Source: a virus | Lineage: Duplodnaviria > Heunggongvirae > Uroviricota > Caudoviricetes | Reading direction: 5' to 3' (one strand) | Virus record (IMG/VR): IMGVR_UViG_2609459791_000001 | Span: 1-15,845 of that record | DNA: 15,845 nucleotides | Shown here: piece after piece, positions 1 through 15,845 of the stretch | How the letters are laid out: each line of letters starts with the position of its first letter | Numbering within the stretch: the first letter of the stretch is position 1 | Notes under the pieces: generated by a model | The model's database searches: none | What the model was told of the DNA's origin: nothing | What the model saw: only the letters and a program-made list of their open reading frames with translations | Position numbers and translations under genes: made by a program

Positions 1-72
1 AATTCGTTGTCAGGATAAGGACAATCAATAAAGGACTTCTGTATGAGTCATACAGAAAGAACAGGATTTTAA

Positions 73-1506
73 ATGAATAAGAAATCGTTATGGAAGCTAA
101 TTCTGATATTAGCGATCCCATGTATTATTGGTTTTATGCCAGCTCCGGCAGGATTAAGCGAACTGGCGTGGGTGCTTTTTGGTATTTACCTGGCGGCCAT
201 TGTGGGGCTGGTTATCAAGCCTTTCCCGGAACCTGTCGTACTGTTAATTGCCGTTGCTGCCTCAATGGTGGTGGTCGGTAACTTATCCGACGGTGCGTTT
301 AAAACCACCGCCGTATTAAGCGGTTACTCTTCAGGTACCACCTGGCTGGTGTTCTCGGCGTTTACCTTAAGCGCCGCATTTGTGACCACCGGTTTAGGTA
401 AACGTATTGCCTATCTGCTGATTGGTAAAATCGGTAACACCACGCTGGGTCTGGGTTACGTTACGGTATTCCTCGATCTGGTACTGGCTCCGGCAACACC
501 GTCTAACACCGCGCGTGCGGGCGGCATTGTGTTACCGATCATCAACAGCGTGGCGGTGGCTTTGGGGTCCGAACCGGAAAAAAGTCCGCGTCGTGTCGGA
601 CATTACCTGATGATGTCCATTTACATGGTCACCAAAACCACCAGCTATATGTTCTTTACCGCAATGGCGGGGAACATTCTGGCGCTGAAAATGATCAACG
701 ACATTCTGCACCTGCAAATTAGCTGGGGTGGATGGGCGCTGGCAGCCGGATTGCCGGGCATCATTATGCTGCTGGTCACCCCGCTGGTGATTTACACCAT
801 GTATCCACCAGAAATTAAGAAGGTGGATAACAAAACCATCGCTAAAGCGGGCCTTGCCGAACTAGGACCGATGAAAATCCGCGAAAAAATGCTGCTCGGT
901 GTCTTTGTGCTGGCGCTGCTGGGCTGGATTTTCAGTAAGTCTCTGGGGGTTGATGAATCCACCGTGGCAATCGTTGTTATGGCAACCATGCTGCTGCTGG
1001 GTATCGTTACCTGGGAAGACGTGGTTAAAAATAAAGGCGGCTGGAATACCTTAATCTGGTACGGCGGTATTATCGGCTTAAGCTCCTTATTATCGAAAGT
1101 TAAATTCTTCGAATGGTTAGCTGAAGTCTTTAAAAATAACCTGGCATTTGATGGTCACGGTAACGTTGCTTTCTTCGTTATTATTTTCCTCAGCATTATC
1201 GTGCGTTATTTCTTCGCTTCCGGTAGTGCCTATATCGTTGCTATGTTACCGGTATTTGCCATGCTGGCGAACGTCTCCGGCGCACCGTTAATGTTAACCG
1301 CGCTGGCACTGTTGTTCTCCAACTCCTATGGCGGCATGGTTACTCACTATGGCGGCGCGGCAGGTCCGGTCATCTTTGGCGTGGGTTATAACGATATTAA
1401 ATCCTGGTGGTTGGTCGGTGCGGTACTGACGATATTAACCTTCCTGGTGCATATCACCCTCGGCGTGTGGTGGTGGAATATGCTGATCGGCTGGAACATG
1501 CTGTAA
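73..1506 (+). CDS. ybhI: Putative inner-membrane anion/carboxylate transporter (DASS-like permease)
   Basis: 477-aa ORF, hydrophobic throughout with many predicted TM segments; position immediately upstream of an aconitase-family gene and ybhC matches the E. coli ybhI-ybhJ-ybhC arrangement next to att-lambda. Confidence 0.85.
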   Translation: MNKKSLWKLILILAIPCIIGFMPAPAGLSELAWVLFGIYLAAIVGLVIKPFPEPVVLLIAVAASMVVVGNLSDGAFKTTAVLSGYSSGTTWLVFSAFTLSAAFVTTGLGKRIAYLLIGKIGNTTLGLGYVTVFLDLVLAPATPSNTARAGGIVLPIINSVAVALGSEPEKSPRRVGHYLMMSIYMVTKTTSYMFFTAMAGNILALKMINDILHLQISWGGWALAAGLPGIIMLLVTPLVIYTMYPPEIKKVDNKTIAKAGLAELGPMKIREKMLLGVFVLALLGWIFSKSLGVDESTVAIVVMATMLLLGIVTWEDVVKNKGGWNTLIWYGGIIGLSSLLSKVKFFEWLAEVFKNNLAFDGHGNVAFFVIIFLSIIVRYFFASGSAYIVAMLPVFAMLANVSGAPLMLTALALLFSNSYGGMVTHYGGAAGPVIFGVGYNDIKSWWLVGAVLTILTFLVHITLGVWWWNMLIGWNML

Positions 1507-1514
1507 ATATACTC

Positions 1515-1628
1515 GTCATACTTCAAGTTGCATGTGCTGCGTTTGCGTTCGCTCACCCCAGTCACTTACTTATGTAAGCTCCTGGGGATTCACTCACTTG
1601 TCGCCTTCCTGCAACTCGAATTATTTAG
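1515..1628. repeat. ERIC (enterobacterial repetitive intergenic consensus) element in the ybhI-ybhJ spacer
   Basis: Contains cgctcaccccagtcacttactt and atgtaagctcctggggattcac, which I recognise as the two halves of the ERIC core (the ERIC2 / ERIC1R primer sequences) in inverted arrangement; flanked by inverted repeat caagttgca / tgcaactcg. Boundaries approximate. Confidence 0.75.
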
Positions 1629-1688
1629 AGTATATCCATTTATTATCTTTCTGCGCACTTCACGGTGCGCAGATATCTGGAGCATTTG

Positions 1689-3950
1689 ATGATCAAGTTA
1701 TCTGAAAAAGGCATGTTTCTCGCCAGTAATAACGAAATAATTGCCGAAGAACATTTCACCGGCGAAATTAAAAAAGAAGAAGCCAAAAAAGGCACTATTG
1801 CCTGGTCTATTCTCTCTTCTCATAATACGTCCGGAAATATGGATAAACTTAAAATTAAGTTTGATTCATTAGCCTCTCACGATATTACCTTTGTTGGTAT
1901 TGTACAGACCGCTAAAGCGTCCGGAATGGAACGTTTCCCGCTGCCGTATGTGCTGACCAACTGCCATAACTCACTCTGCGCCGTCGGCGGCACCATTAAC
2001 GGTGATGACCATGTTTTTGGTTTATCGGCAGCTCAGCGTTATGGCGGTATTTTTGTGCCTCCGCATATTGCGGTCATCCATCAATATATGCGTGAGATGA
2101 TGGCAGGCGGCGGCAAAATGATCCTCGGGTCAGACAGCCACACCCGTTACGGTGCATTAGGGACAATGGCAGTCGGTGAGGGCGGCGGTGAGTTGGTAAA
2201 ACAGCTGCTTAATGACACCTGGGATATCGACTATCCGGGAGTTGTTGCGGTGCATCTGACCGGAAAACCAGCGCCGTATGTGGGGCCGCAGGATGTGGCG
2301 CTGGCTATCATCGGTGCCGTGTTCAAAAACGGCTACGTCAAAAACAAAGTGATGGAATTCGTAGGTCCCGGTGTTGCTGCGCTCTCTACCGATTTCCGTA
2401 ACAGCGTTGACGTTATGACCACTGAAACGACCTGTTTAAGTTCTGTCTGGCAAACCGATGAAGAAGTCCATAACTGGCTGGCGCTGCACGGTCGCGGCCA
2501 GGATTACTGCCAGCTTAACCCTCAACCGATGGCGTACTACGATGGCTGCATCAGCGTTGATTTAAGCGCCATCAAACCAATGATTGCGCTGCCGTTCCAC
2601 CCGAGCAACGTGTATGAAATCGACACACTGAACCAGAACCTGACCGACATTCTGCGTGAGATTGAAATTGAGTCCGAACGCGTGGCGCACGGTAAAGCCA
2701 AACTCTCGCTGCTGGATAAAGTGGAAAATGGTCGCCTGAAAGTGCAGCAGGGGATTATCGCGGGCTGTTCTGGCGGTAACTACGAAAACGTCATCGCGGC
2801 GGCGAATGCACTGCGCGGTCAATCCTGTGGCAATGACACCTTCTCGCTGGCAGTTTACCCGTCATCACAGCCGGTGTTTATGGATCTCGCCAAAAAAGGT
2901 GTGGTAGCAGATTTGATTGGCGCAGGCGCAATCATCAGAACCGCGTTCTGCGGCCCATGCTTTGGCGCGGGCGATACGCCAATCAACAACGGATTAAGTA
3001 TTCGCCACACCACGCGCAACTTCCCGAACCGCGAAGGCTCTAAGCCAGCTAATGGGCAGATGTCAGCGGTGGCGTTGATGGACGCTCGTTCTATCGCTGC
3101 GACTGCGGCAAACGGTGGCTATTTAACCTCTGCCAGCGAACTTGATTGCTGGGACAACGTGCCGGAGTACGCCTTCGATGTAACGCCGTATAAAAACCGT
3201 GTTTATCAGGGCTTTGTGAAAGGGGCAACTCAGCAACCGCTGATTTACGGACCGAACATTAAAGACTGGCCGGAATTGGGTGCGCTGACTGACAATATCG
3301 TCCTGAAAGTGTGCTCGAAGATCCTCGACGAAGTGACCACCACCGACGAACTGATTCCTTCCGGTGAAACCTCTTCTTATCGTTCAAATCCGATTGGTCT
3401 GGCGGAGTTTACCCTGTCACGCCGCGATCCCGGTTATGTTGGCAGAAGTAAAGCGACTGCTGAGCTGGAAAATCAGCGTCTGGCGGGGAATGTCAGCGAG
3501 CTGACAGAGGTGTTTGCGCGCATTAAGCAGATTGCTGGTCAGGAGCATATTGATCCGCTGCAAACTGAAATTGGCAGCATGGTATATGCGGTGAAACCAG
3601 GCGATGGTTCTGCGCGTGAACAGGCGGCGAGCTGCCAGCGTGTGATTGGCGGTCTGGCGAATATTGCCGAAGAGTACGCGACTAAACGCTACCGTTCTAA
3701 CGTCATCAACTGGGGGATGTTACCGCTGCAGATGGCGGAAGTGCCAACCTTTGAAGTGGGGGATTACATTTACATCCCTGGCATTAAAGCGGCGCTGGAT
3801 AATCCGGGTACGACGTTTAAAGGTTATGTGATCCATGAAGATGCGCCGGTAACGGAAATTACGCTCTATATGGAAAGTCTGACTGCTGAAGAGCGCGAGA
3901 TTATCAAGGCGGGTAGTTTGATTAACTTCAATAAAAACCGTCAGATGTAA
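1689..3950 (+). CDS. ybhJ: Aconitase-family hydratase/dehydratase (putative)
   Basis: ORF in track begins at 1665, but ATG at 1689 is preceded by GGAG (1679-1682) and gives 753 aa; contains aconitase-like motifs GSDSHT and CGPCFGAG. Confidence 0.88.
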
Positions 3951-3965
3951 AAAGCGCCATGTGAA

Positions 3966-4172
<207 letters not shown>

Positions 4173-4183
4173 GTTAATTGCTC

Positions 4184-5467
4184 TTACTTCTTCGCCTCTG
4201 CAACCACTTTACTACCCACGCCGCGGTTATTGTATTCCCACATGCGGTTGTAGTTAGTGTCATTCAGATTGCGCTGTATTTCGTCGTTATCATCTACGCT
4301 GCCGGTATTACCCGCAAACGGACGATTAGAGATCACCGCATCGGCCCACGGTTTAGCCGTGTTAAAACCTTCGTTGATGGCGCTATCACGGATCACCACC
4401 TGACCGTTGGTATTGGCATCAACATCCAGCGAGCGGCCCAGTTGCGCCACACCATCACCGAAAGCATTGAAACGGCTGTTTACGGCGAGGAAACCGTAGT
4501 AAATGTTGGACAGCGTAGCCGGTGCAAACACATACGCTTCTTGCTGAGTACGTGAGTTCACCACGCGGAATTCGGTGTTATCGAACACCACTGCGCCGCG
4601 ACCAGAAACGATATCCACATCCCCTTCAATGTAGCTGTTGGTCACCAGCGTACGCGGCTGACGATTCGTTTCCAGACGGTTCTGCACACCGCTGTTGGTG
4701 ACAAAGAAGGTGTTCTGACGACCGAGAATGTTAACGTTGTTAATCTGTACCTGGTCACCATCAGTACGCAGTGCCACCGCCGGATGGTTACCTACATCTA
4801 CGCTATCGCCCAGCGTGTTTTCGATGGTCAGATTTTGCAGTTGCAGGCCATTGTTTTGTGACCAGAAGACCGCAGAGCAGAGAACACCGATACTGTCGCT
4901 GCGTTTGCTCTGGCAGCTATCGTACATATACCACGCTGGTTTACCTGGCATATATTTGCCGCGCGGGTTGACGTCGTGACGCCAGTCGGCAGGGCTCATG
5001 CCACCATCAAGGGAAAGCCCAATCTTCACATCAATCGGTTTTTCACCTGTACCGTACAGAGTAATTCCACCCGGAGCGGCAGGGACATATACCGTTCCCT
5101 GATACTCACCAGGCATCACGGCAATATACTGGCGCTTGTTGGTACGCTTGATAATTGCCGCATCTACCGCCGCCTGAATCGTGGTATGCGTTACACCTTG
5201 AGTGCCCGCCGGGCCGACAACAAAGTCAGGTTGCGCAGGCAGGGTAATCGGGGAAGGATTCCACGCTGCAGCACCTGGTGTCAGGGATGCAAAATAGTGT
5301 TGAGCATCGAAATTCTGCGCTTCTTTTGCCGACAGAATCGGGCGAGAAGAGGTACCAGGCGCGGTTTGATCAGAAGGACGTTGATCGGGCGGAGTTGAGC
5401 TACAGGCGGTCAGCGTCACGCCAAAAGCCAATGCCAGCGCCAGACGGGAAACTGAAAATGTGTTCAC
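4184..5467 (-). CDS. ybhC: Outer-membrane lipoprotein, pectin-methylesterase-like family
   Basis: 427-aa ORF; GTG start at 5467 with GGAG upstream; N-terminal signal peptide with lipobox LTAC; pectinesterase-like segments (AVALRTDGDQ, GDVDIVSGRGAVVFDNTEF); last chromosomal gene before the att core. Confidence 0.85.
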   Translation of the reverse strand: MNTFSVSRLALALAFGVTLTACSSTPPDQRPSDQTAPGTSSRPILSAKEAQNFDAQHYFASLTPGAAAWNPSPITLPAQPDFVVGPAGTQGVTHTTIQAAVDAAIIKRTNKRQYIAVMPGEYQGTVYVPAAPGGITLYGTGEKPIDVKIGLSLDGGMSPADWRHDVNPRGKYMPGKPAWYMYDSCQSKRSDSIGVLCSAVFWSQNNGLQLQNLTIENTLGDSVDVGNHPAVALRTDGDQVQINNVNILGRQNTFFVTNSGVQNRLETNRQPRTLVTNSYIEGDVDIVSGRGAVVFDNTEFRVVNSRTQQEAYVFAPATLSNIYYGFLAVNSRFNAFGDGVAQLGRSLDVDANTNGQVVIRDSAINEGFNTAKPWADAVISNRPFAGNTGSVDDNDEIQRNLNDTNYNRMWEYNNRGVGSKVVAEAKK

Positions 5468-5499
5468 AGGTTGCTCCGGGCTATGAAATAGAAAAATGA

Positions 5500-5601
5500 A
5501 TCCGTTGAAGCCTGCTTTTTTATACTAAGTTGGCATTATAAAAAAGCATTGCTTATCAATTTGTTGCAACGAACAGGTCACTATCAGTCAAAATAAAATC
5601 A
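5500..5601. other. attL: attL (B-O-P') of a lambda-type integrase; 15-bp core GCTTTTTTATACTAA at 5514-5528 followed by the P' arm
   Basis: Exact lambda att core sequence; sequence to the right (gttggcattataaaaaagcattgcttatcaatttgttgcaacgaacaggtcactatcagtcaaaataaaatcattatttgatttc) matches what I remember of the lambda P' arm with arm-type Int sites; int gene immediately adjacent. Confidence 0.9.
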
Positions 5602-6672
5602 TTATTTGATTTCAATTTTGTCCCACTCCCTGCCTCTGTCATCACGATACTGTGATGCCATGGTGTCCGACTTATGCCCGAGAAGATGTTGAGCAAACTT
5701 ATCGCTTATCTGCTTCTCATAGAGTCTTGCAGACAAACTGCGCAACTCGTGAAAGGTAGGCGGATCCCCTTCGAAGGAAAGACCTGATGCTTTTCGTGCG
5801 CGCATAAAATACCTTGATACTGTGCCGGATGAAAGCGGTTCGCGACGAGTAGATGCAATTATGGTTTCTCCGCCAAGAATCTCTTTGCATTTATCAAGTG
5901 TTTCCTTCATTGATATTCCGAGGGCATCAACATGCAATGCTGTTGGGATGGCAATTTTTACGCCTGTTTTGCTTTGCTCGACATAAAGATATCCATCTAC
6001 GATATCAGACCACTTCATTTCGCATAAATCACCAACTCGTTGCCCGGTAACAACAGCCAGTTCCATTGCAAGTCTGAGCCAATATGGTGATGATTCTGCT
6101 GCTTGATAAATTTTCAGGTATTCGTCAGCCGTAAGTCTTGATCTCCTTACCTCTGATTTTGCTGCGCGAGTGGCAGCGACAGGGTTTGTTGTTATATGGC
6201 CTTCAGCTATTGCCTCTCGGAATGCATCGCTCAGTGTTGATCTGATTAACTTGGCTGACGCCGCCTTGCCCTCGTCTATGTATCCATTGAGCATTGCCGC
6301 AATTTCTTTTGTGGTGATGTCTTCAAGTGGAGCATCAGGCAGACCCCTCCTTATTGCTTTAATTTTGCTCATGTAATTTATGAGTGTCTTCTGCTTGATT
6401 CCTCTGCTGGCCAGGATTTTTTCGTAGCGATCAAGCCATGAATGTAACGTAACGGAATTATCACTGTTGATTCTCGCTGTCAGAGGCTTGTGTTTGTGTC
6501 CTGAAAATAACTCAATGTTGGCCTGTATAGCTTCAGTGATTGCGATTCGCCTGTCTCGGCCTAATCCAAACTCTTTACCCGTCCTTGGGTCCCTGTAGCA
6601 GTAATATCCATTGTTTCTTATATAAAGGTTAGGGGGTAAATCCCGGCGCTCATGACTTCGCCTTCTTCCCAT
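5602..6672 (-). CDS. int: Tyrosine integrase, lambda Int type
   Basis: 356-aa ORF; translation (MGRRRSHERRDLPPNLYIRNNGYYCYRDPRTGKEFGLG..., C-terminal ...HELRSLSARLYEKQ...LLGHKSDTMASQYRDDRGREWDKIEIK) matches lambda Int as I remember it, including the catalytic-domain HxxR and Tyr region; adjacent to att. Confidence 0.95.
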   Translation of the reverse strand: MGRRRSHERRDLPPNLYIRNNGYYCYRDPRTGKEFGLGRDRRIAITEAIQANIELFSGHKHKPLTARINSDNSVTLHSWLDRYEKILASRGIKQKTLINYMSKIKAIRRGLPDAPLEDITTKEIAAMLNGYIDEGKAASAKLIRSTLSDAFREAIAEGHITTNPVAATRAAKSEVRRSRLTADEYLKIYQAAESSPYWLRLAMELAVVTGQRVGDLCEMKWSDIVDGYLYVEQSKTGVKIAIPTALHVDALGISMKETLDKCKEILGGETIIASTRREPLSSGTVSRYFMRARKASGLSFEGDPPTFHELRSLSARLYEKQISDKFAQHLLGHKSDTMASQYRDDRGREWDKIEIK

Positions 6673-6868
6673 TTCTGATCCTCTTCAAAAGGCTACCTGT
6701 TACTGGTCGATTTAAGTCAACCTTTACCGCTGATTCGTGGAACAGATATTCTCTTCCATCCTTAACCGGAGGAGGGAATATCCTGCATTCGCGCACCCAT
6801 CGACGAACTGTTTCAAGGCTTCTTGGGCGTCGCTGGCGAGCGTTCCACTCCTGAAGTGTCAAGTACAT
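6650..6868 (-). CDS. xis: Excisionase, lambda Xis type
   Basis: 72-aa ORF MYLTLQEWNARQRRPRSLETVRRWVRECRIFPPPVKDGREYLFHESAVKVDLNRPVTGSLLKRIRNGKKAKS, overlapping the int start by 23 nt as in lambda. Confidence 0.95.
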   Translation of the reverse strand: MYLTLQEWNARQRRPRSLETVRRWVRECRIFPPPVKDGREYLFHESAVKVDLNRPVTGSLLKRIRNGKKAKS

Positions 6869-7084
6869 CGCAAAGTCTCCGCAATTACACGCAAGAAAAA
6901 ACCGCCATCAGGCGGCTTGGTGTTCTTTCAGTTCTTCAATTCGAATATTGGTTACGTCTGCATGTGCTATCTGCGCCCACAGCATCCAGTGGTCATAGCA
7001 GTCGCTGATGTTCTCGGCTTCGATAACTCTGTTGAATGGTTCTCCATTCTATTCACCTGTAACTCGGAAGTGCATTTATCATCG

Positions 7085-7142
7085 CCATAAAACAAAACTC
7101 GCCGTAGCGAGTTCAGATAAAAGAAAACCCGCACTCGGCGGG
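7085..7142 (-). terminator. Tandem rho-independent terminator-like hairpins for leftward transcription, upstream of xis
   Basis: On the minus strand: hairpin cccgccgagtgcggg (7128-7142) followed by a U-rich run, and hairpin actcgctacggcgagt (7097-7112) followed by ttttgtttt. Confidence 0.5.
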
Positions 7143-7164
7143 TTCGCATTCGTTCAAATTGCGT

Positions 7165-7446
7165 TTACTTCTTGGCGTTCTGTTCATCCATATCGATATA
7201 CCATGGGTTGCTTCCCTTGGGCATGTTTAACGACTGCTCGCGATAGTATCTGATGCGCTCCATGAAATACTCGCGTGAGTGCTCAGGTTGCTCTCATGAT
7301 ACCTGCTCAGTGATAACAGGTATGTTAAGGCGCTCTCTGTACTCCATGCCTGATGCTGCAAGGTCAACGTTTACCTTGTTCTGTTTTTCTTTCGATTTCT
7401 CGGCGATGTTATGCCTGACATTGTCAACCCGCCTCCTTCTGAACAT
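7165..7446 (-). pseudogene. ea8.5: ea8.5-like reading frame (282 nt) interrupted by one in-frame TGA at codon 51
   Basis: ATG at 7446 (minus) to TAA at 7165-7167 is a single frame of 94 codons with one internal TGA (7294-7296): MFRRRRVDNVRHNIAEKSKEKQNKVNVDLAASGMEYRERLNIPVITEQVS*EQPEHSREYFMERIRYYREQSLNMPKGSNPWYIDMDEQNAKK. Length and distance from xis match where I remember lambda ea8.5 (93 aa). Identity to lambda Ea8.5 is not verified. Confidence 0.4.
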
Positions 7447-7666
7447 AACGGTTATAAATCAGTCCCTGAGGGCCATAAGGAAGCGGGATGTGCAACTCCT
7501 CTGGTTCAGAAACTATCCATTCCCCGGCCATCTCCGCTGGAGAGGTAATGATAAGTTGTTTGCTAATAAAAGGACCACTCCTCTCAACAACAAGCTTACC
7601 ATCTTCATTAATAAAAGCTTGGATGTCAGGTGTGCTTCCACACTTGGTGATGCAGCGTTTGAACAT
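7424..7666 (-). CDS. Hypothetical small phage protein (80 aa), accessory region beside xis
   Basis: ORF in track 7424-7708; internal ATG at 7666 is preceded by GGGGGA at appropriate spacing, giving MFKRCITKCGSTPDIQAFINEDGKLVVERSGPFISKQ...; overlaps the ea8.5-like start by 23 nt in another frame; co-directional with the 191-aa gene. Confidence 0.5.
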   Translation of the reverse strand: MFKRCITKCGSTPDIQAFINEDGKLVVERSGPFISKQLIITSPAEMAGEWIVSEPEELHIPLPYGPQGLIYNRYVQKEAG

Positions 7667-7792
7667 TTTGTGTCCCCCCATTTTATGGACGGGGTAATTA
7701 TAACACATTGAAATATAGTAATATTTGACGTAGATTTCTTTTGATCTATAAGCGATTTTTTAATGCTTTTAAGTTATAAATACTTGTTTTCA

Positions 7793-8368
7793 TCACCCAT
7801 CTTGCTGCGGTGCTACTATTGAAAAGTACTCACACCCTTTAGCCCAAATAGTTTTGATAGTTGTCCAACTGACTGGAACCTTGATTTCGATTCTTCCGCT
7901 GCCGTCACAAGTTTCGCAATCATCATCACCAAAGCATTCCGGGCAGCTTATAAACGTAGTTTCTGAAAATTCACCGGATAGCACACCCTTAGCGCCGTTC
8001 TCAGCGGTTAGTTTCTTCGGCACTATAACCCAACCATCCGGAGTTACCGGAGAGTTGCCATTTATATCGAAGTTTGGCTCTGCGTCCTGAACCAGGAGGA
8101 TGTAACCATTCTTGGCAGTATCAAGTTCTAACGCCTCGGTGACGGTACCGAAATAGCGATTACCTAAATCCGCATCACAAGTGCTTACATCAATGGAAAC
8201 CTCCATGCCTTCGATTAATTCTGGCAAGTTGTAAGTTTGGCTTACAGGTTCTGCTCCCAGTGATGCCAGTGCAATTCGTGCCAGTTCCATTTGTTCGCCA
8301 CGAGTAAGCCCGTTTTCAAGCGGATTTTTAATGAACAATTCAATACGTTCTTTGGTAATAGTGGTCAT
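7793..8368 (-). CDS. Hypothetical phage protein (191 aa) with C-terminal DnaJ-like CxxCxGxG zinc-finger motif
   Basis: ORF with good SD (AAGGA, 8 nt before ATG at 8368); C-terminal CPECFGDDDCETCDGSG gives two CxxC pairs in CxxCxGxG-type spacing; acidic N-terminal two-thirds. No family recognised from memory. Confidence 0.65.
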   Translation of the reverse strand: MTTITKERIELFIKNPLENGLTRGEQMELARIALASLGAEPVSQTYNLPELIEGMEVSIDVSTCDADLGNRYFGTVTEALELDTAKNGYILLVQDAEPNFDINGNSPVTPDGWVIVPKKLTAENGAKGVLSGEFSETTFISCPECFGDDDCETCDGSGRIEIKVPVSWTTIKTIWAKGCEYFSIVAPQQDG

Positions 8369-8597
8369 TTGTTAGTCCTTAAACTGCTAGTTGCAATTGC
8401 ATTTCAAAGCGGTCGCGTTGTTCACAATACGCAAGAGAACCAGGGCTATTGTGTGCCTCAAACTGCAAATACCTTCCAACGAAACGCTCCAGAAATAAAC
8501 GCAAGCCAATCCCAAAAGAATCTGACGTAAAAACCTTCAATTACACAGCTCACCTGTGGGATATCCGGTGGCTAAGATATCGTGCGAGGAAATGACA
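8369..8597. promoter_or_regulatory. Divergent intergenic region between leftward accessory genes and rightward nin-like genes; contains 10-bp perfect palindrome tgcaattgca (8392-8401)
   Basis: Only non-coding stretch separating the leftward and rightward gene blocks; occupies the place where a complete lambdoid phage has its whole early/immunity region. Promoter elements not confidently identified. Confidence 0.3.
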
Positions 8598-8939
8598 ATG
8601 GATTATTCACAGTTAAGTGATTTTGAAATTAACAGAATGGTAGGAGACATAATTTTTAAAGGCCTTTGGGCAAGTAAACCGGAAACATCAGGGAATAACA
8701 CCAACAAATGGTATTACGGAAATGCTGATACAACTTTTGAGCCATTAAATCATTTGCCTGACTACTGCAATGATCCGAGCGCTTCATGGCCGATTATTGA
8801 GAAATACAGGATTTCTATCTTAGACCAGTTAACTGAATGGTGTGTGGATGCAAAAGGCGTAAGCCCAATATTTGATACCAGACCTCTCCGCGCCGCCATG
8901 ATTGTCTTTCTCCTGATGCAGGAGGCCAATAATGCTTAG
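8598..8939 (+). CDS. Hypothetical phage nin-region protein (113 aa; possibly NinX/DUF2591-like)
   Basis: ORF in track starts at GTG 8556; ATG at 8598 lies 7 nt after GAGGA (8586-8590). Family assignment is from weak recollection only. Confidence 0.5.
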
Positions 8940-9020
8940 CCCATCTCAATCCCTTCAATACCTGAAAGGAAGCATAGAGCGGGCTTCAATGTGCACAGAG
9001 TGGATTCTATCTAGGTTTAG

Positions 9021-9149
9021 CGCATACAGAAGATTGCCGGTAAAGGGCATGCCAAGCAAGTCGATGCTGCATATGCAAAAGAATGCGCGCTGGAAGGTAT
9101 GGCGAGAACACAGGTTATCTGGCTGAAAGAGGGGGTTATTAAGGCGTGA
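9021..9149 (+). pseudogene. ybcO: 3' remnant of a ybcO-like (DUF1364) gene, lacking its 5' part
   Basis: Frame ending at TGA 9147-9149 reads ...[30 protein letters not shown], matching the C-terminus of DLP12 YbcO as I remember it, and overlaps the rusA start as in DLP12; in-frame stops at 9012-9014 and 9018-9020 and no start codon mean only about 42 codons remain. The 64-aa track ORF 8932-9126 is a different frame across the same DNA. Confidence 0.5.
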
Positions 9150-9508
9150 ATACCTACAGCATCACATTACCCTGGCCTCCGAGTAATAATCGCTATTACC
9201 GCCATAATCGCGGGCGCACGCACGTCAGCGCAGAGGGGCAGGCATACCGCGATAACGTCGCCCGAATCATTAAAAACGCAATGCTGGATATCGGCCTGAC
9301 TATGCCTGTGAAAATCCGCATTGAGTGCCACATGCCGGATCGCCGTCGCCGTGACCTGGATAATCTGCAAAAAGCCGCTTTTGACGCACTCACTAAAGCA
9401 GGTTTCTGGCTGGATGATGCTCAGGTCGTTGATTACCGCGTTGTGAAGATGCCTGTTACCAAAGGTGGGAGGCTGGAACTGACCATCACCGAAATGGGGA
9501 ATGAATGA
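9146..9508 (+). CDS. rusA: Holliday-junction resolvase RusA
   Basis: 120-aa ORF (GTG start) [51 protein letters not shown]...[31 protein letters not shown], matches DLP12 RusA closely from memory. Confidence 0.9.
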
Positions 9509-9730
9509 TGTTTGAGTTTAATATGGCAGAACTTCTTCGCCACCGCTGGATGCGCCTGCGCTTATATCGTTTCCCCAGTTCTGTTTTGACCGATTACCGA
9601 ATACTGAGGAATTACGCCAAAACCCTGACAGGAGCAGGAGTATGAAGTCAGAGATAACAATCAACTAATACTGTTTTATTGATTTTTGCTTGTAATTGGC
9701 GTTCTGGTCTGATTTTTGTGGAGTAAGTTG

Positions 9731-10114
9731 ATGCGTGATATTCAGATGGTTCTTGAGCGTTGGGGAGCGTGGGCGGCTAATAATCATGAAGATGTGACCT
9801 GGTCGTCCATTGCCGCCGGTTTTAAGGGATTAATTACTTCAAAAGTAAAATCTCGCCCGCAATGTTGTGACGATGACGCTATGATCATTTGCGGGTGCAT
9901 GGCCCGTCTGAAAAAGAACAACAGCGATTTGCACGATTTATTAGTAGATTATTATGTAGTCGGTATGACATTCATGTCACTGGCAGGTAAGCATTGCTGC
10001 TCTGATGGTTATATCGGGAAAAGGTTACAGAAGGCTGAGGGCATAATTGAAGGGATGTTAATGGCATTAGATATCCGGTTAGAGATGGATATCGTTGTTA
10101 ATAACTCTAATTAA
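9731..10114 (+). CDS. Q: Late-gene antiterminator Q (phage 82 / DLP12 QuuD type)
   Basis: Track ORF starts at TTG 9716; ATG at 9731 gives 127 aa [26 protein letters not shown]... with Cys-rich zinc-binding region ([18 protein letters not shown]); position rusA-Q-lysis is canonical. Confidence 0.85.
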
Positions 10115-10127
10115 TACGCCAATTATT

Positions 10128-10292
10128 TACTAAAAGTTATTAAAAATGGGGCGTTGAAACGCCCCCAAAAATAAAGGGTAATATATAACAGAAGGTTTGT
10201 ATAGTTAGAAGCAAGGTTGTGCTTCTAAAGGAAGTGGCTTGAGGGAGCCACTTATATGTTGGGGAGGCAAAGCCTCCCACAACATATCTTTT
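10128..10292. terminator. Cluster of four stem-loops between convergent Q and porin genes (likely porin terminator(s) and Q-dependent late leader / tR-prime equivalents)
   Basis: Hairpins ggggcgttgaaacgcccc (10148-10165; U-run on minus strand), agaagcaaggttgtgcttct, gtggcttgagggagccac, and a long stem atatgttggggaggc-aaa-gcctcccacaacatat (about 10254-10290; followed by cttttag on plus strand). Confidence 0.5.
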
Positions 10293-10302
10293 AGTAATCA
10301 AA

Positions 10303-11385
10303 TTAGAACTGGTAAACCATACCTACAGCAACGATATCATCGGTAGCAACGCCAGATGCTTTCGTGAAATCGCTCTTATCAATCAGGTTGATTTTGTAGT
10401 CAACAAAAGTGGACATATTTTTGTTGAAGTAATAGGTTGCACCTACATCAACATATTCAACCAGGTCCTGATCACCCCAAACACCCAAGTCTTTTCCTTT
10501 AGAATGCAGGTAAGCAACGGATGGACGCAGGCCGAAGTCGAACTGATATTGTGCAACAGCTTCGAAGTTTTGTGCTTTGTTGGCAATATGGTTATTACCA
10601 AAAACAGTCATGTTCTGGGTTTCAGAATAGGTGGTGGCCAGATAGATGTTGTTCGCATCATATTTCAGACCAGCTGCCCATACTTCAGCATTTTGACCAG
10701 AAGCATTCAGACCGTTGTTACCGTAGATAACCTGATTATTAGTGCGATCAGATTTAGCATAGGTTGCACCCACGCCGAATCCTTCATACTCATAAGTAGT
10801 TGAGAAACCGAAACCATCGCCATTAGCTTCAGTTACTTCATTTCGGTCATTTTTGCCCTGATACTGAGCTGCAAAGTTCAGGCCATCAACCAGACCAAAG
10901 AAGTCGTTGTTACGATAAGTTGCAACACCTGTGGTGCGACCAGTCATGAATACATCTGTTTGGGTCCAGGTATCGCCACCGAATTCTGGCAGAACGTCAG
11001 TCCACGCACCGATGTCGTATGCTACACCGTAGTTACGGCCGTAATCGATTGAGCCGTAGTCACCGAATTTCAGGCCTGCAAATGCAAGACGGGTTTTGTC
11101 TTTGGAGGAACCTTGAGATTCAGCGCGGTTGCCTTTGAATTCATATTCCCACTGACCGAAACCAGTCAGTTGATCGTTGATTTGGGTTTCACCTTTGAAG
11201 CCAAGACGGGCATAAGTAGTATCACCATCATCTGCATCATTAGAGGAGAAGTAGTGCTTAGCATTAACTTTCCCGTACAGATCCAGCTTGTTACTGTCTT
11301 TATTATAAATTTCAGCTGCCTGAGCAGACATCGCCATCAGTACTGATGCAGCTACAGCAGAAATTGCCACTGTTAATTTTTTCAT
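10303..11385 (-). CDS. nmpC: Phage-encoded outer-membrane porin, OmpC/OmpF family (Lc / NmpC-like), apparently intact
   Basis: 360-aa ORF with signal peptide [23 protein letters not shown], porin-typical N-terminal AEIYNKD...KLDLYGK and C-terminal ...VAVGMVYQF ending in aromatic residue; located between Q and the lysis genes as in PA-2 and DLP12. Confidence 0.9.
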
Positions 11386-11974
11386 CGTGAGCCCTTTTTT
11401 TTGAACTATTATTAAAAAATGATGTCACTGCGCGATAAATATTCATCTAATCAATGTGATTATTTCAAGATGTAAGTTTTAGTTTCTCGTTTAATTTGTG
11501 AAGTAGATCTCTATTTTTATCTGAACTTTTTTCTATCGAATCCTATTCATGGCTCTTGGCTGAATAAAAATAAATCTATTAGCCAATTTATATTAATGGC
11601 TGTTATTTATAAGTGCTCTATAATTTGAAGGTTCAATTTAAATTGGCTAAAAATAACGCTGGAAATTATTTATTGGTTATTTGTTAAGATTTTCTTATGT
11701 ATTTGTGGTGGAGTTTTGAACACTCGGTAGCATTCTCATAAATATCATTCAGTGGTTTACGTACGTAAAAAATTGGTTATGCTGTTAAGAGTGGTTACTT
11801 CGTCACACAGCTTAAACCCGCCGTCGAGCTGGTTTTTCCATTTTTTGAGTCTCGATATTAGCTGATAACTCAATACCTGAGTTATTCACTGACTCCGAGT
11901 CTGTTACGTTTCTGCTTTTTTGCGATACGTTGTATTCCCTCAATTTACACCCGCTTTGTCTGCGAGGTGGGGTT
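11386..11974. promoter_or_regulatory. AT-rich 590-bp intergenic region: porin promoter/regulatory region and leader of lysis operon
   Basis: Long strongly AT-rich spacer directly upstream of the minus-strand porin start, with no ORF of 60 aa or more in the track; individual promoter elements not resolved. Confidence 0.3.
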
Positions 11975-12190
11975 ATGAAATCCATGGATAAGTTAACAAC
12001 GGGTGTCGCCTATGGCACCTCAGCAGGTAGTGCCGGTTACTGGTTTTTACAGCTGCTCGATAAAGTCACGCCCTCACAGTGGGCGGCAATTGGAGTGCTG
12101 GGTAGCCTGGTATTTGGCCTGCTGACGTACCTGACAAACCTTTATTTCAAGATTAAAGAAGATAAGCGCAAGGCTGCGAGAGGTGAATAA
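11975..12190 (+). CDS. S: Class II holin (pinholin), phage 21 S type, with dual start motif
   Basis: Track ORF from 11930; ATG at 11975 gives 71 aa [71 protein letters not shown], two TM segments and Met1/Met4 dual starts as in S21. Confidence 0.85.
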
Positions 12191-12687
12191 TGCCTCCATC
12201 ATTACGAAAAGCCGTTGCTGCTGCTATTGGTGGCGGAGCAATTGCTATAGCATCAGTGTTAATTACTGGCCCAAGTGGTAACGATGGTCTGGAAGGTGTC
12301 AGCTACATACCATACAAAGATATTGTTGGTGTATGGACTGTATGTCACGGGCATACAGGAAAAGACATCATGCTCGGTAAAACGTATACCAAAGCAGAAT
12401 GCAAAGCCCTCCTGAATAAAGACCTTGCCACGGTCGCCAGACAAATTAACCCGTACATCAAAGTCGATATACCGGAAACAATGCGCGGCGCTCTTTACTC
12501 ATTCGTTTACAACGTGGGTGCTGGCAATTTCAGAACATCGACGCTTCTTCGCAAAATAAACCAGGGCGATATCAAAGGCGCATGTGATCAGCTACGTCGC
12601 TGGACATATGCTGGCGGTAAGCAATGGAAAGGGCTGATGACTCGCCGTGAGATTGAGCGTGAAGTCTGTTTGTGGGGGCAGCAATGA
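12190..12687 (+). CDS. R: SAR endolysin (lysozyme, T4-lysozyme-like fold) R21/RrrD type
   Basis: 165 aa; start ATG overlaps holin stop (TAATG); N-terminal Gly/Ala-rich weakly hydrophobic SAR segment [20 protein letters not shown] followed by lysozyme domain. Confidence 0.9.
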
Positions 12688-13151
12688 GCAGAGTAACTGC
12701 GATTATCTCCGCTCTGGTTATCTGCATCATCGTCTGCCTGTCATGGGCTGTTAATCATTACCGTGATAACGCCATTACCTACAAAGCCCAGCGCGACAAA
12801 AATGTCAGAGAACTGAAGCTGGCGAACGCGGCAATTACTGACATGCAGATGCGTCAGCGTGATGTTGCTGCGCTCGATGCAAAATACACGAAGGAGTTAG
12901 CTGATGCGAAAGCTGAAAATGATGCTCTTCTGCGGAAGCTTGATAATGGTGGCAGGGTGCTCGTCAAAGGAAAATGCCCTGTGCCATCCTCTGCCGAAAC
13001 CTCCAGCGCCTCCGGCATGGGCAATGATGCCACCGTCGAACTCTCTCCAGTTGCTGGACGAAACGTTCTCGATATCCGGGACGGAATTATCCGCGACCAA
13101 ACAGCACTGAGAACGCTTCAGGAATACATTAGGACGCAATGCCTTCGATGA
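12684..13151 (+). CDS. Rz: i-spanin Rz
   Basis: ATG at 12684 overlaps R stop (ATGA); N-terminal TM segment then coiled-coil-like charged region; contains embedded +1-frame lipoprotein gene. Confidence 0.8.
12904..13110 (+). CDS. Rz1: o-spanin Rz1 (outer-membrane lipoprotein), embedded in Rz in the +1 frame
   Basis: 68-aa [26 protein letters not shown]... with lipobox MVAGC and proline-rich mature region ([16 protein letters not shown]), wholly inside Rz. Confidence 0.7.
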
Positions 13152-13327
13152 TAGCGATAATTTTACTCATCATCCTTCACATCTGGCTCTGTAGACAGGG
13201 TGGTGATCACTTCTGGAGTAAATCCAGATTAAACATCTCATTGCTGATGCTTGATATTGAGCATCTGGCGCGCAGTAAGGGGCTGCGTTGAGATAAGAGC
13301 CAGTTCATTACAAATACCAGGATTTAG

Positions 13328-13350
13328 CCTCGCATTCGCGGGGCTTTTTA
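13328..13350 (+). terminator. Possible rho-independent terminator downstream of Rz
   Basis: cctcgc-attc-gcgggg stem-loop (one G-U pair) followed by cttttta. Confidence 0.35.
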
Positions 13351-13493
13351 TATCTGAATTTCACAGCGCATCTCACGCGCATATTAACGAGAGCCTTTCA
13401 GTAAGCGAGCCTGAGAAATGCCGTTATAGGTGGCGACCTCTCTCGGGCGGCTTTTCTGTGAGACAGGCTCACTTTCTAAAAGGTAAAGACGCT

Positions 13494-14018
13494 ATGAATA
13501 ATCATTCAGTTATTCCAGCCTTCGACTTCCGAGAAATGGTGCAAGCCAAAAACGGAGAGGTCGTTACCACATCCAGAAAAATTGCCAAGTACTTCGGCAA
13601 GCGACACGGTGATGTTCTCAGGAAAATCGAGCAGGTTAAGGCTGATTGCTCGCGTGAGTTTAGCCAACGCAATTTTGCGTCGGCTGATTATATCGATGAG
13701 CAGGGCAAGGTTCGCCCGATGTACAGCCTGACGAAAGATGGCTGGATCATGGTTGTGATGGGGTTCACCGGGAAAGCTGCTGCGGCAATCAAGGAGAGCT
13801 ATATCGCAGCATTCAACTGGATGGCAGAACAACTGAGCCGCCGCATGGCAATTGGCGAAGAAATGCAGCACCGCTACGCCATCAAAGAAACACGCTCAAA
13901 GCTGAAAGGTACGATCGGCAGTCGGTTAATGAACGAACGGAAGAAAGAGAAGCGTGTCCTGGCTGTCGAGCATGAATACATCTTGCAGGTGACACAGCCT
14001 GAACTGCTGATTAATTGA
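13494..14018 (+). CDS. rha: Rha-family phage regulatory protein (174 aa)
   Basis: ATG at 13494 preceded by AAGGTAAAG; N-terminal region VTTSRKIAKYFGKRHGDVLRKIE is the characteristic Rha-domain motif; the longer TTG-initiated frame from 13251 is rejected as a 5' extension. Confidence 0.7.
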   Translation: MNNHSVIPAFDFREMVQAKNGEVVTTSRKIAKYFGKRHGDVLRKIEQVKADCSREFSQRNFASADYIDEQGKVRPMYSLTKDGWIMVVMGFTGKAAAAIKESYIAAFNWMAEQLSRRMAIGEEMQHRYAIKETRSKLKGTIGSRLMNERKKEKRVLAVEHEYILQVTQPELLIN

Positions 14019-14320
14019 AGATGTCATTACAAAGCCTATCTACGGGGGGCTTGATAATGGCTTATACCCTGCACGGGATAACTTAACTGATATCCCTTTT
14101 AACGGATAAAGGTATTCAAGCCTGACACATCATGCGCTGTATCGTCGCCGTATTCCCGCATTAACCATGACCGTAGCCTGACGGGGAATTCCTTCTGCGT
14201 GAGTGTGCGGGAATAATCAAAAACGATGCACACCGGGTTATTAACGCGTCAACTGAACGCGGGGTTGCTCTTCATGTCAGCCAGTCCGGTGCAGGGGTAG
14301 AAGAAACCGGACGTTATGGT

Positions 14321-14731
14321 TTAGTGTGGAAACATTTGTGATGTGCTCTGTATGTTTTCAGTAAAGAGTAATGAATTATCAAAGGTATAGTAATATCTTT
14401 TTTGTTCGTGGATATTTGTAACCCACCGAAAAACTCCTGCTTTAGCAAGGTTTCTTCTGTATTCCTGAAATGTGATCTCTCTGGATTTCAGCTTATTAGA
14501 GGTCGTTTCTATAAGATGCCTATCCTTTGAAAATTTGACAGACACAATGTTTTTTAGGCCCTTTAATAACACTGTATTATCATTTTTTAATACAATATGA
14601 ACATTCTCTGTGGCTAAATAGTAAATGTAATGTGAGACATTGTGACGTTTTAGCTCAGAATAAAACCATTGATAGTTTAAATCGTTTCGAACTTTATCAA
14701 ATATTTGTTTAAAAATGACTACCTGATCCAT
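14321..14731 (-). CDS. DUF1398 / YbcV-like protein (136 aa), AT-rich moron gene
   Basis: Track ORF starts at 14746; second ATG at 14731 follows GGAAGG at good spacing and gives 136 aa; visibly lower G+C than flanking phage DNA; resembles DLP12 YbcV in size, position (between Rz and terminase) and, from memory, sequence. Confidence 0.6.
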
Positions 14732-14790
14732 AGATAAACCTTCCATGTGATATGAGGGGGGGCGTAGTCTGCACGATTATCTAAATTGCT

Positions 14791-15024
14791 TCAATCTGGT
14801 CTGATCTGTTTTCTGAGCAATTCAGTAATGTCACTCTTTTCTTTGTTTGCTTCAGGAGAAACTCTTTTTTCTGAGCACAGTCTCCGGCGGCAGGCTTCAA
14901 TGACCCAGGCTGAGAAATTCCCGGACCCTTTTTGATCAAGAGCGATGTTAATTTGTTCAATCATTTGGTTAGGAAAGCGGATGTTGCGGGTTGTTGTTCT
15001 GCGGGTTCTGTTCTTCGTTGACAT
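14791..15024 (-). CDS. Ribbon-helix-helix (Arc/MetJ/CopG-like) DNA-binding protein, 77 aa
   Basis: Basic N-terminal tail (MSTKNRTRRTTTRNIRFPNQ) followed by RHH-like pattern IRFPNQMIEQINIALDQKGSGNFSAWVIEACRRRL (beta strand, helix A, G-x-S/N turn, helix B); immediately upstream of and co-directional with the DUF1398-like gene. Confidence 0.6.
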   Translation of the reverse strand: MSTKNRTRRTTTRNIRFPNQMIEQINIALDQKGSGNFSAWVIEACRRRLCSEKRVSPEANKEKSDITELLRKQIRPD

Positions 15025-15223
15025 GAGGTTGTCCCGTATTCAGTGTCGCTGATTTGTATTGTCTGAAGTTGTTTTTACGTTAAGTTGATGCAGATCAATT
15101 AATATGATACCTGCGTCATAATTGATTATTTGACGTGGTTTGATGGCGTAGATGCACGTTGTGACATGCAGATGATAATTATTATCATTTTGCGGGTCCT
15201 TTCCGGCGATCCGACAGGTTACG

Positions 15224-15412
15224 GGGCGGCGACCTCGCGGGTTTTCGCTATTTATGAAAATTTTCCGGTTTAAGGCGTTTCCGTTCTTCTTCGTCGTAAC
15301 TTAATGTTTTTATTTAAAATACCCTCTGAAAAGAAAGGAAGCGACAGGTGCTGAAAGCGAGCTTTTTGGCCTCTGTCGTTTCCTTTCTCTGTTTTTGTCC
15401 GTGGAATGAACA
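15224..15412. other. cos: cos site, lambda type: cosN 12-nt cohesive-end sequence GGGCGGCGACCT (15224-15235) followed by cosB (terminase R sites / IHF site)
   Basis: Sequence ccgacaggttacg-GGGCGGCGACCT-cgcgggttttcgctatttatgaaaattttccggtttaaggcgtttccgttcttcttcgt matches the lambda genome ends as I remember them with a few substitutions; Nu1 starts about 190 bp downstream as in lambda. Confidence 0.85.
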
Positions 15413-15845
15413 ATGGAAGTCAACAAAAAGCAGCTGGCTGACATTTTCGGTGCGAGTATCCGTACCATTCAGAACTGGCAGGAACAGGGAATGCCCGTTC
15501 TGCGAGGCGGTGGCAAGGGTAATGAGGTGCTTTATGACTCTGCCGCCGTCATAAAATGGTATGCCGAAAGGGATGCTGAAATTGAGAACGAAAAGCTGCG
15601 CCGGGAAGTTGAAGAACTGCGGCAGGCCAGCGAGACAGATCTCCAGCCAGGGACTATTGAGTACGAACGCCATCGACTTACGCGTGCGCAGGCCGACGCA
15701 CAGGAGCTGAAAAATGCCAGAGACTCCGCTGAAGTGGTGGAAACCGCATTCTGTACTTTCGTGCTGTCGCGGATCGCAGGTGAAATTGCCAGTATTCTCG
15801 ACGGGATCCCCCTGTCGGTGCAGCGGCGTTTTCCGGAACTGGAAA
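15413..15845 (+). CDS. nu1: Terminase small subunit Nu1 (5' part; runs off window end)
   Basis: ATG at 15413; translation MEVNKKQLADIFGASIRTIQNWQEQGMPVLRGGGKGNEVLYDSAAVIKWYAERDAEIENEKLRREVEELRQ... matches lambda Nu1 (winged HTH at N-terminus). Not in ORF track because no stop occurs within the window. Confidence 0.9.
   Translation, partial: MEVNKKQLADIFGASIRTIQNWQEQGMPVLRGGGKGNEVLYDSAAVIKWYAERDAEIENEKLRREVEELRQASETDLQPGTIEYERHRLTRAQADAQELKNARDSAEVVETAFCTFVLSRIAGEIASILDGIPLSVQRRFPELE

Follow-up and report, generated by a model that had tools for sequence, protein, structure and literature searches.

The phage DNA in IMG/VR virus record IMGVR_UViG_2609459791_000001, of which we analyzed positions 1 to 15,845 (hereafter the window, to which coordinates refer unless stated otherwise), belongs to a defective lambdoid prophage of 14,955 bp, of which it makes up the left two-thirds. 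The window is a 100% match to the chromosome of Escherichia coli 20AR0354 (NZ_CM132272.1; a human urine isolate from New Zealand), on which the rest of the element also lies. Very probably this is an ordinary dead prophage that descends from a lambda-like ancestor of ∼47 kb through two recent, illegitimate deletions at the level of microhomology: one of the early region (deletion 1), and one from the terminase small subunit gene Nu1 to the side tail fiber gene stf (deletion 2).

The element is a lambdoid prophage in the classical lambda attB, in the classical orientation. In the 20AR0354 annotation it is flanked by ybhC and ybhB, with bioA beyond ybhB (the gal-bio interval), and its ends are two direct copies of the 15-bp lambda att core, from which the att-to-att length was taken. 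The core sequence GCTTTTTTATACTAA occurs once in the window (0 expected by chance), at 5514–5528 on the + strand, where it forms attL (BOP′) and is followed by a P′ arm with no difference from that of lambda across the 60 bases compared. The attR core lies beyond the window at the equivalent of 20469–20483 (34570–34584 of locus L001). The distance from the att core to cos is 9,710 bp, in agreement with the ∼9.7 kb given in an earlier note on this DNA. A first guess from gene content had been the prophage DLP12 at argU; a tRNA scan of the window found no tRNA, and this assignment was therefore dropped.

Deletion 1 has its junction at 8460/8461, which reads ...GTGTGCCTCAA joined to ACTGCAAATACC... 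and shows a 2-nt microhomology, “AA” (the only bases that the two parents have in common there), and no insertion sequence (IS) scar. Left-arm matches in many E. coli genomes stop at window 8461, and right-arm matches in many genomes and phages begin at 8460. The left arm has 2 mismatches in 2,948 bp to the prophage of strain STEC313, which continues beyond this arm with ea22, exo, bet, gam, kil, a repressor, cro-like and cII-like genes, O, P, and a nin region. The right arm has 3 mismatches in 7,386 bp to the prophage of strain HS30-1. Ahead of the matching stretch HS30-1 carries exo-bet-gam-kil-cIII, a gene for a LexA-type repressor, cro, cII, O, P, ren, ninB, a gene for a dam methylase, and the opening codons of ninE; this prophage is annotated with a full early and morphogenesis gene set up to the start of stf, where the stretch examined ends. 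The alignments support a left parent of STEC313 type and a right parent of HS30-1 type, with both arms mapped to the base, and they bear out the proposal of the earlier note that the element is a deletion-derived defective prophage. The left break falls 83 nt short of the end of a 251-aa leftward gene of the ea region (WP_000582228.1 in STEC313), leaving a 3′ remnant of ∼27 codons at 8379–8461 (− strand), and the right break falls 41 nt inside ninE, at about codon 14. Relative to HS30-1 the deletion removed ∼11.3 kb, and relative to STEC313 ∼12.4 kb; the genes lost are exo/bet/gam, N, repressor/cro/cII, O/P, ren, ninB, and dam.

The interval of about 230 bp between 8368 and 8598, in which the earlier note had found the early genes missing, does lack them but is not empty, as it holds the gene tail, junction 1, and a beheaded ninE (8462–8595, + strand; first ∼13 codons gone, Pfam NinE profile positions 14–58 of 58). 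The Prokaryotic Genome Annotation Pipeline (PGAP) starts ninE at a fortuitous TTG at 8449 in left-arm DNA, and so reports a “complete” 48-aa NinE family protein; 8449–8595 is a chimeric reading frame made by deletion 1, in which an in-frame TTG of the left arm precedes the truncated ninE. Promoter and terminator scanning of junction 1 and the Q region returned fewer promoter-like sites than shuffled sequence and none at the junction, and nothing therefore indicates that deletion 1 gave rise to a promoter for the genes from ninE to Q.

Deletion 2 truncates Nu1 (15413–15845, + strand, in the window) at about nt 437 of 546 and fuses it to stf. Nu1 homology reaches as far as window-equivalent 15849 (lambda nt 627), and homology to stf starts at 15841, so that the junction occupies ∼15841–15849 at the very end of the window. 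It reads ...CCGGAACTGGAAACC joined to CGTGCAG..., with GGAAA(CC) as microhomology (∼5–7 nt) between Nu1 and stf. Because the window ends inside this junction, the earlier note had taken Nu1 as intact, which it is not. On the map of phage ev099, positions 616 to 20833 are gone (∼20.2 kb), a segment containing terminase A, portal, protease, decoration and capsid proteins, all tail genes, J, and lom. Past the junction come the partial stf, tfa, a sensor diguanylate cyclase gene, and then attR.

The complete att-to-att element was used as the tblastn target, with 34 lambda, 16 HS30-1 and 9 STEC313 proteins, early or structural, as queries. Matches were limited to Int, Xis, NinE (from residue 10), NinX, Nu1 (residues 1–146) and the last 28 residues of one ea-region protein. 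None was found anywhere in the element for exo, bet, gam, kil, cIII, N, cI or other repressors, cro, cII, O, P, ren, ninB, or dam, with three immunity types queried, nor for the morphogenesis proteins A, W, B, C, D, E, V, H, and J; lambda Q also had no match in the element. Pfam analysis of 20 open reading frames (ORFs) likewise detected no repressor domain, helix-turn-helix repressors included, and no Cro, N or replication domain. The Pfam matches also agree with the set of retained genes and with NinE and Nu1 being truncated. The earlier note had reported that no repressor, Cro, N or replication protein was recognizable and had asked about the remainder of the prophage; its observation stands, and the part outside the window, searched by annotation and tblastn, holds no immunity or replication genes either. 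The absence of the early region is real for the whole element, beyond the window too. The only regulatory genes are Rha and Q, both of them ordinary late-region lambdoid genes that are also present in the apparently intact HS30-1 prophage. As judged from its gene content, the element lacks functions essential for lytic growth and can be classed as a cryptic or defective prophage of the DLP12-like kind.

The sizes add up to the proposed ancestor: the 15.0 kb that remain, the 11.3–12.4 kb of deletion 1 and the 20.2 kb of deletion 2 sum to ∼47 kb, and phage ev099 measures 47,224 bp. To place the two junctions in the population we used a collection of 5,426 complete E. coli genomes and, for junction 1, a 120-nt probe across the joint. 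The probe was fully covered in 1 of the 5,426 genomes. Junction 2 was also found in one genome, the sole other full-coverage match carrying a different joint, and the ybhC-attL-int joint, which marks a lambda-type int at this site, was found in 1,920. Because the arms differ by only 2–3 bases from apparently intact prophages, the deletions are recent; there has been no time for decay, and the retention of the remaining genes is therefore uninformative on selection. The 5.5-kb chromosomal flank is 2 bases off that of strain ET881, 3 off HS30-1, and 48 off STEC313.

The early region has been lost repeatedly at this locus. ET881 and SW071610 have the ends of this same prophage (1 base of 735 differs in the int part and 1 of 3,943 in the tfa-cyclase-attR end), with deletions that run from the interior of int to the interior of ninX, IS-free, and from a truncated gpA with an IS66 fragment to the end of stf. 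ET881 retains Nu1 and part of A, both lacking in the present element, and has lost the stf DNA that is retained here; since the two strains keep different pieces, their morphogenesis deletions were independent events in one prophage lineage. At the same attB the immunity region was also lost via IS1 (Res13-Lact-EB12-05), IS5 (F95), and ISEc52 (1585m1). Like our element, the Res13, F95, 1585m1 and ET881/SW071610 prophages share the right arm and lack the immunity region; the first three differ from it in having junctions with an IS and in retaining head genes (Res13 and F95 tail genes too, as far as the stretches examined reach), whereas the int-ninX joint of ET881 is IS-free. The deletions in other strains lie at L002 13807–14952, L003 15801–17068, L007 7509–9019, and L008 6203–7121 and 13905–16001. 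These relatives were found by searching with the retained block, and that they all retain it is thus a matter of ascertainment.

The two joints, arms almost identical to those of apparently intact relatives, and the lack of the missing genes across the element were read directly from the DNA. Deletion 1 fused the 3′ end of the ea-region gene to about codon 14 of ninE, removing the recombination, N, immunity, replication and early nin genes, and deletion 2 fused Nu1, at about nt 437, to stf, removing terminase A along with every head and tail gene. How the element should behave is reasoned from this and from established lambda biology. As it lacks repressor, pL/pR, N, O/P, and ori, neither repression nor induction nor replication would be expected. 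Since the promoter upstream of Q is gone, the lysis cassette, placed behind the late terminator, is expected to remain silent unless a Q with the right specificity arrives in trans; with pL and cII missing, int and xis should seldom bring about excision unless a superinfecting phage of lambda type supplies the functions. Promoters of their own may still drive the opposite-strand porin gene and the small accessory genes.

As a rival reading, a helper-dependent satellite, either a phage-inducible chromosomal island (PICI) or a cos satellite, could have kept int/xis, cos and part of Nu1 for excision and packaging by a lambdoid helper, and the 14,955-bp length does fall in the PICI size range, int and xis look coding-competent, both att sites and the cosN/cosB region are intact, and the same genome holds other lambdoid sequences (six matching places in the record). 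Yet annotation, tblastn and Pfam of the scanned ORFs revealed none of what such a lifestyle should require, that is, no origin, replication gene or replication module, no helper-responsive regulator, master repressor or antirepressor target, and no gene for capsid-size or packaging redirection, and the dependence on a helper that the earlier note had offered as its second option loses its footing. The retained segments are moreover colinear with ordinary lambdoid prophages, the two arms checked being 2–3 bases off them; both joints are private, microhomology-level scars, and the architecture, confined to a single genome of the collection, is not conserved across strains. Lambda packaging requires ∼38–52 kb between cos sites. 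By established lambda biology a non-replicating circle of 15 kb with one cos, which is all that this element carries, is not a packaging substrate, and we regard a satellite as highly improbable. We attach just as little credence to a chimeric join of different lambdoid prophages of one genome during assembly. The record is a chromosome-level whole-genome shotgun assembly of a genome with several lambdoid prophage regions that share long repeats, but repeat misassemblies join in shared sequence, whereas these joints lie in unique sequence with 2–7 nt of homology; both att cores and both chromosomal flanks are correctly placed, and the same prophage is seen, independently and in shortened form, in ET881 and SW071610.

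Long domestication, in which int, xis, Q, the porin, the lysis genes and cos would have been kept by selection, is somewhat less far-fetched than either of these but still improbable. Its attraction is that the nin-Q-porin-lysis-cos-Nu1 block is still found in DLP12 and in several prophages at this site that underwent deletions independently, that the DLP12 lysis module is reported to serve the host in producing vesicles and maintaining the cell wall (PMC7918800), and that cryptic prophages of K-12 can help the host to tolerate stress (PMC3105296). The junctions are nevertheless private to one genome of the 5,426, the near-identity of the arms to apparently intact prophages leaves no time for selection to show in what is retained, the block-sharing relatives carry the ascertainment bias described above, and Nu1, one of the supposedly retained genes, is cut by deletion 2. 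The suggestion of the earlier note that retention after such a deletion points to selection on some of these genes is thus not supported by the comparison with relatives. Some observations also weigh against the simple history of two recent deletions that we prefer. No genome in the collection has both parental arms intact in one prophage, and the ancestor is pieced together from two relatives plus ET881; the junctions are taken from a chromosome-level assembly; the expression states given above (Q silent, porin expressed, int/xis unexpressed) are those predicted from gene order and lambda biology; and the Nu1 breakpoint is shared with two other prophages, so that deletion 2 may not be a simple random event but the product of a hot spot, or of recombination that brought in the junction.

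This last point deserves a fuller account. The Nu1 breakpoint (...GTTTTCCGGAACTGGAAA) recurs to within ∼4 nt in three prophages at three chromosomal sites, with three different stf positions as partners: the present element, a prophage at the Qin site in VREC0864, and a prophage at the DLP12 site in TW14425. In VREC0864 the joint reads ...CTGGAAAAC followed by AGGCC..., its stf partner lying 66 nt upstream of that of the element, and the joint of the element equals the VREC0864 joint minus the 66 nt between GGAAA repeats. In TW14425 it reads ...CTGGAAA followed by TCAGATT..., with an stf partner ∼1.2 kb downstream of that of the element. The breakpoints are located at window 15805–15845 (on to L001 29950), L011 ∼12040–12130, and L013 ∼9040–9065, and in L015 and L016. 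A scan of IMG/VR for further variants added two contigs, which repeat the VREC0864 and TW14425 junction types; GTDB genomes yielded no further variants, and a metagenome scan yielded one unrelated, GC-rich chance match only. In K-12, nohA of Qin breaks at about Nu1 nt 529, away from the recurrent breakpoint. By our own estimate, if breakpoints were uniform in Nu1, the chance of two more falling within ∼7 nt of the first would be about (7/546)^2, or ∼2e-4.

The breakpoint is the 3′ arm of a small inverted repeat, GTTTTCC-GGAACT-GGAAAAC. As the sole cause of a hot spot this hairpin was rejected as too weak (centroid −6 kcal/mol, z = −1.24). We also discarded a pseudo-site for an invertase of the Pin/Gin type, which was compared by eye with half-site consensus sequences: the crossovers are not at the central dinucleotide, and the AAACC half-site is missing in two of the three stf partners. 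That the Nu1 end-point of deletion 2 was not random, reflecting either a hot spot or a spreading Nu1′-stf junction, is a tentative idea to which we give less than even weight. A sequence-directed deletion hot spot, for example at the GTTTTCC/GGAAAAC inverted repeat, could repeatedly remove the lambdoid morphogenesis region; alternatively, a defective Nu1′-stf junction could spread between prophages by recombination and then erode further.

Whatever the route to junction 2, the element is a new example, confined to one strain, of a well-known kind, and its layout is that of DLP12 of K-12. The two have the same backbone, int-xis ... ninE-(ybcO)-rusA-ylcG-quuD-porin(nmpC)-essD-rrrD-Rz-ybcV-like-ylcI-like-cos-Nu1(nohD)-tail fiber assembly, with DNA identities of 98% from the ybcO 3′ end through rusA and quuD (9060 to 10344), 92% from nmpC to rzpD, and 97.6% over cos and nohD. 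In DLP12, too, a block of recombination, immunity and replication genes (exoD′ joined to peaD′) and one of head and tail genes (aaaD′ joined to tfaD) are gone, with breakpoints in exo/P and A, whereas those of the element are in ninE and Nu1. DLP12 sits at argU with a different integrase, while the element is at lambda attB with an Int close to that of lambda; and DLP12 in K-12 has IS3 and IS5 insertions and extra cargo (emrE, ybcK-M), whereas the junctions of the element are strain-private, IS-free, and very recent. DLP12 is found in many E. coli genomes, and the selective logic of losing inducibility has been discussed (PMC6379469). With lambda and wild lambda-like prophages (HS30-1 and STEC313; phage ev099) the element shares att core, site and orientation, with DNA identities of 98.5% over int/xis and 98% over cos/Nu1, but it is missing ∼32 kb, and its Q, lysis and nin modules are of the DLP12/phage 21 type and not lambda’s own (lambda Q gives no match, and the holin belongs to the P21 family). 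The element thus offers a base-resolved snapshot of the first steps of prophage decay, in which two IS-free deletions took a prophage of ∼47 kb to 15 kb and to the layout of DLP12, and for which near-isogenic comparators exist, the apparently intact HS30-1 and the differently deleted ET881. Gene retention in so young a remnant cannot count as evidence of selection. Taken alone the element is of little importance; the set of deletions at attB-lambda, together with the recurrent Nu1 breakpoint, could seed a population study of how and where lambdoid prophages are inactivated.

Turning to the remaining genes, the left arm begins with int (5602–6672, − strand; tblastn, Pfam, annotation, and lambda comparison), which encodes a 356-aa tyrosine integrase of lambda type with Arm-DNA-bind_1 and Phage_integrase domains (Pfam). 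Of its 356 residues 3 differ from lambda Int, and the catalytic residues R212, K235, H308, R311, H333, and Y342 are all retained. One change, C197Y (region of window 6084), is not present in the Int of lambda, STEC313 or HS30-1, which were those compared. The 72-aa excisionase encoded by xis (6650–6868, −) differs from lambda Xis in 1 of 72 residues, and the DNA of the int-xis block matches lambda 27724–29340 at 98.5% identity.

A leftward block of ea-region genes follows (6908–8368, −; annotation and left-arm alignment). It consists of a pseudogene like lambda orf55 (6908–7075) and one for a DNA polymerase III theta-like protein in the ea8.5 slot (7165–7446), both with internal stops, a hypothetical gene (7424–7666; annotation), and a 191-aa ORF (7793–8368) with a CxxC-rich C-terminal segment and no Pfam match. 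In the apparently intact STEC313 prophage the same two pseudogenes are likewise annotated with internal stops, and these stops therefore predate the deletions. RefSeq divides the 191-aa ORF in relatives into a “DnaJ” gene and a partial pseudogene, which suggests an older gene fusion within the ea region.

The right arm has the lambdoid gene order nin-Q-lysis-cos-Nu1 and is colinear with ev099 and HS30-1 (annotation, Pfam). What remains of the nin/Q block after ninE (8598–10114, +; annotation, Pfam) comprises ninX (8598–8939; annotation, Pfam, tblastn), an old ybcO/DUF1364 remnant (9060–9149; annotation, Pfam), rusA (9146–9508; annotation, Pfam), ylcG (9505–9645; annotation), and Q/quuD (9731–10114; annotation, Pfam). 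The earlier note was right that a ybcO-like remnant is present. The remnant is also annotated in the HS30-1, Res13, F95, 1585m1 and ET881 prophages and sits inside a stretch colinear with the ev099 genome record; carried by apparently complete relatives, it is an older mosaic scar unrelated to deletion 1.

Between Q and the lysis genes lies, as cargo on the opposite strand, a gene for a 360-aa OmpC/NmpC-like porin (10303–11385, −). The lysis cassette (11975–13151, +; annotation, Pfam) is made up of the holin gene essD (11975–12190; P21 family match in Pfam), the endolysin gene rrrD (12190–12687; annotation, Pfam), and the Rz spanin gene (12684–13151; annotation, Pfam), and is followed by Rha (13494–14018, +), a DUF1398/YbcV-like gene (14321–14731, −) and a YlcI/YnfO-like gene (14791–15024, −), all three from annotation and Pfam. 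The cosN cohesive-end sequence GGGCGGCGACCT is at 15224–15235 (+), where it aligns to lambda position 1, and the DNA flanking it is 95–98% identical to lambda.

The diguanylate cyclase gene between tfa and attR (L001 32598–33929) encodes a 443-aa sensor-domain protein (WP_000586336.1), is apparent b-region cargo, and is also present in ET881. In the chromosomal part of the window, unrelated to the prophage, the ybhJ-ybhC intergenic region matches the Rfam family naRNA4 (RF02564; 60.7 bits, gathering score 59.5) at 4045–4115 (+), around which are two copies of ∼100 bp with ∼92% identity, at 3974–4076 and 4067–4168.

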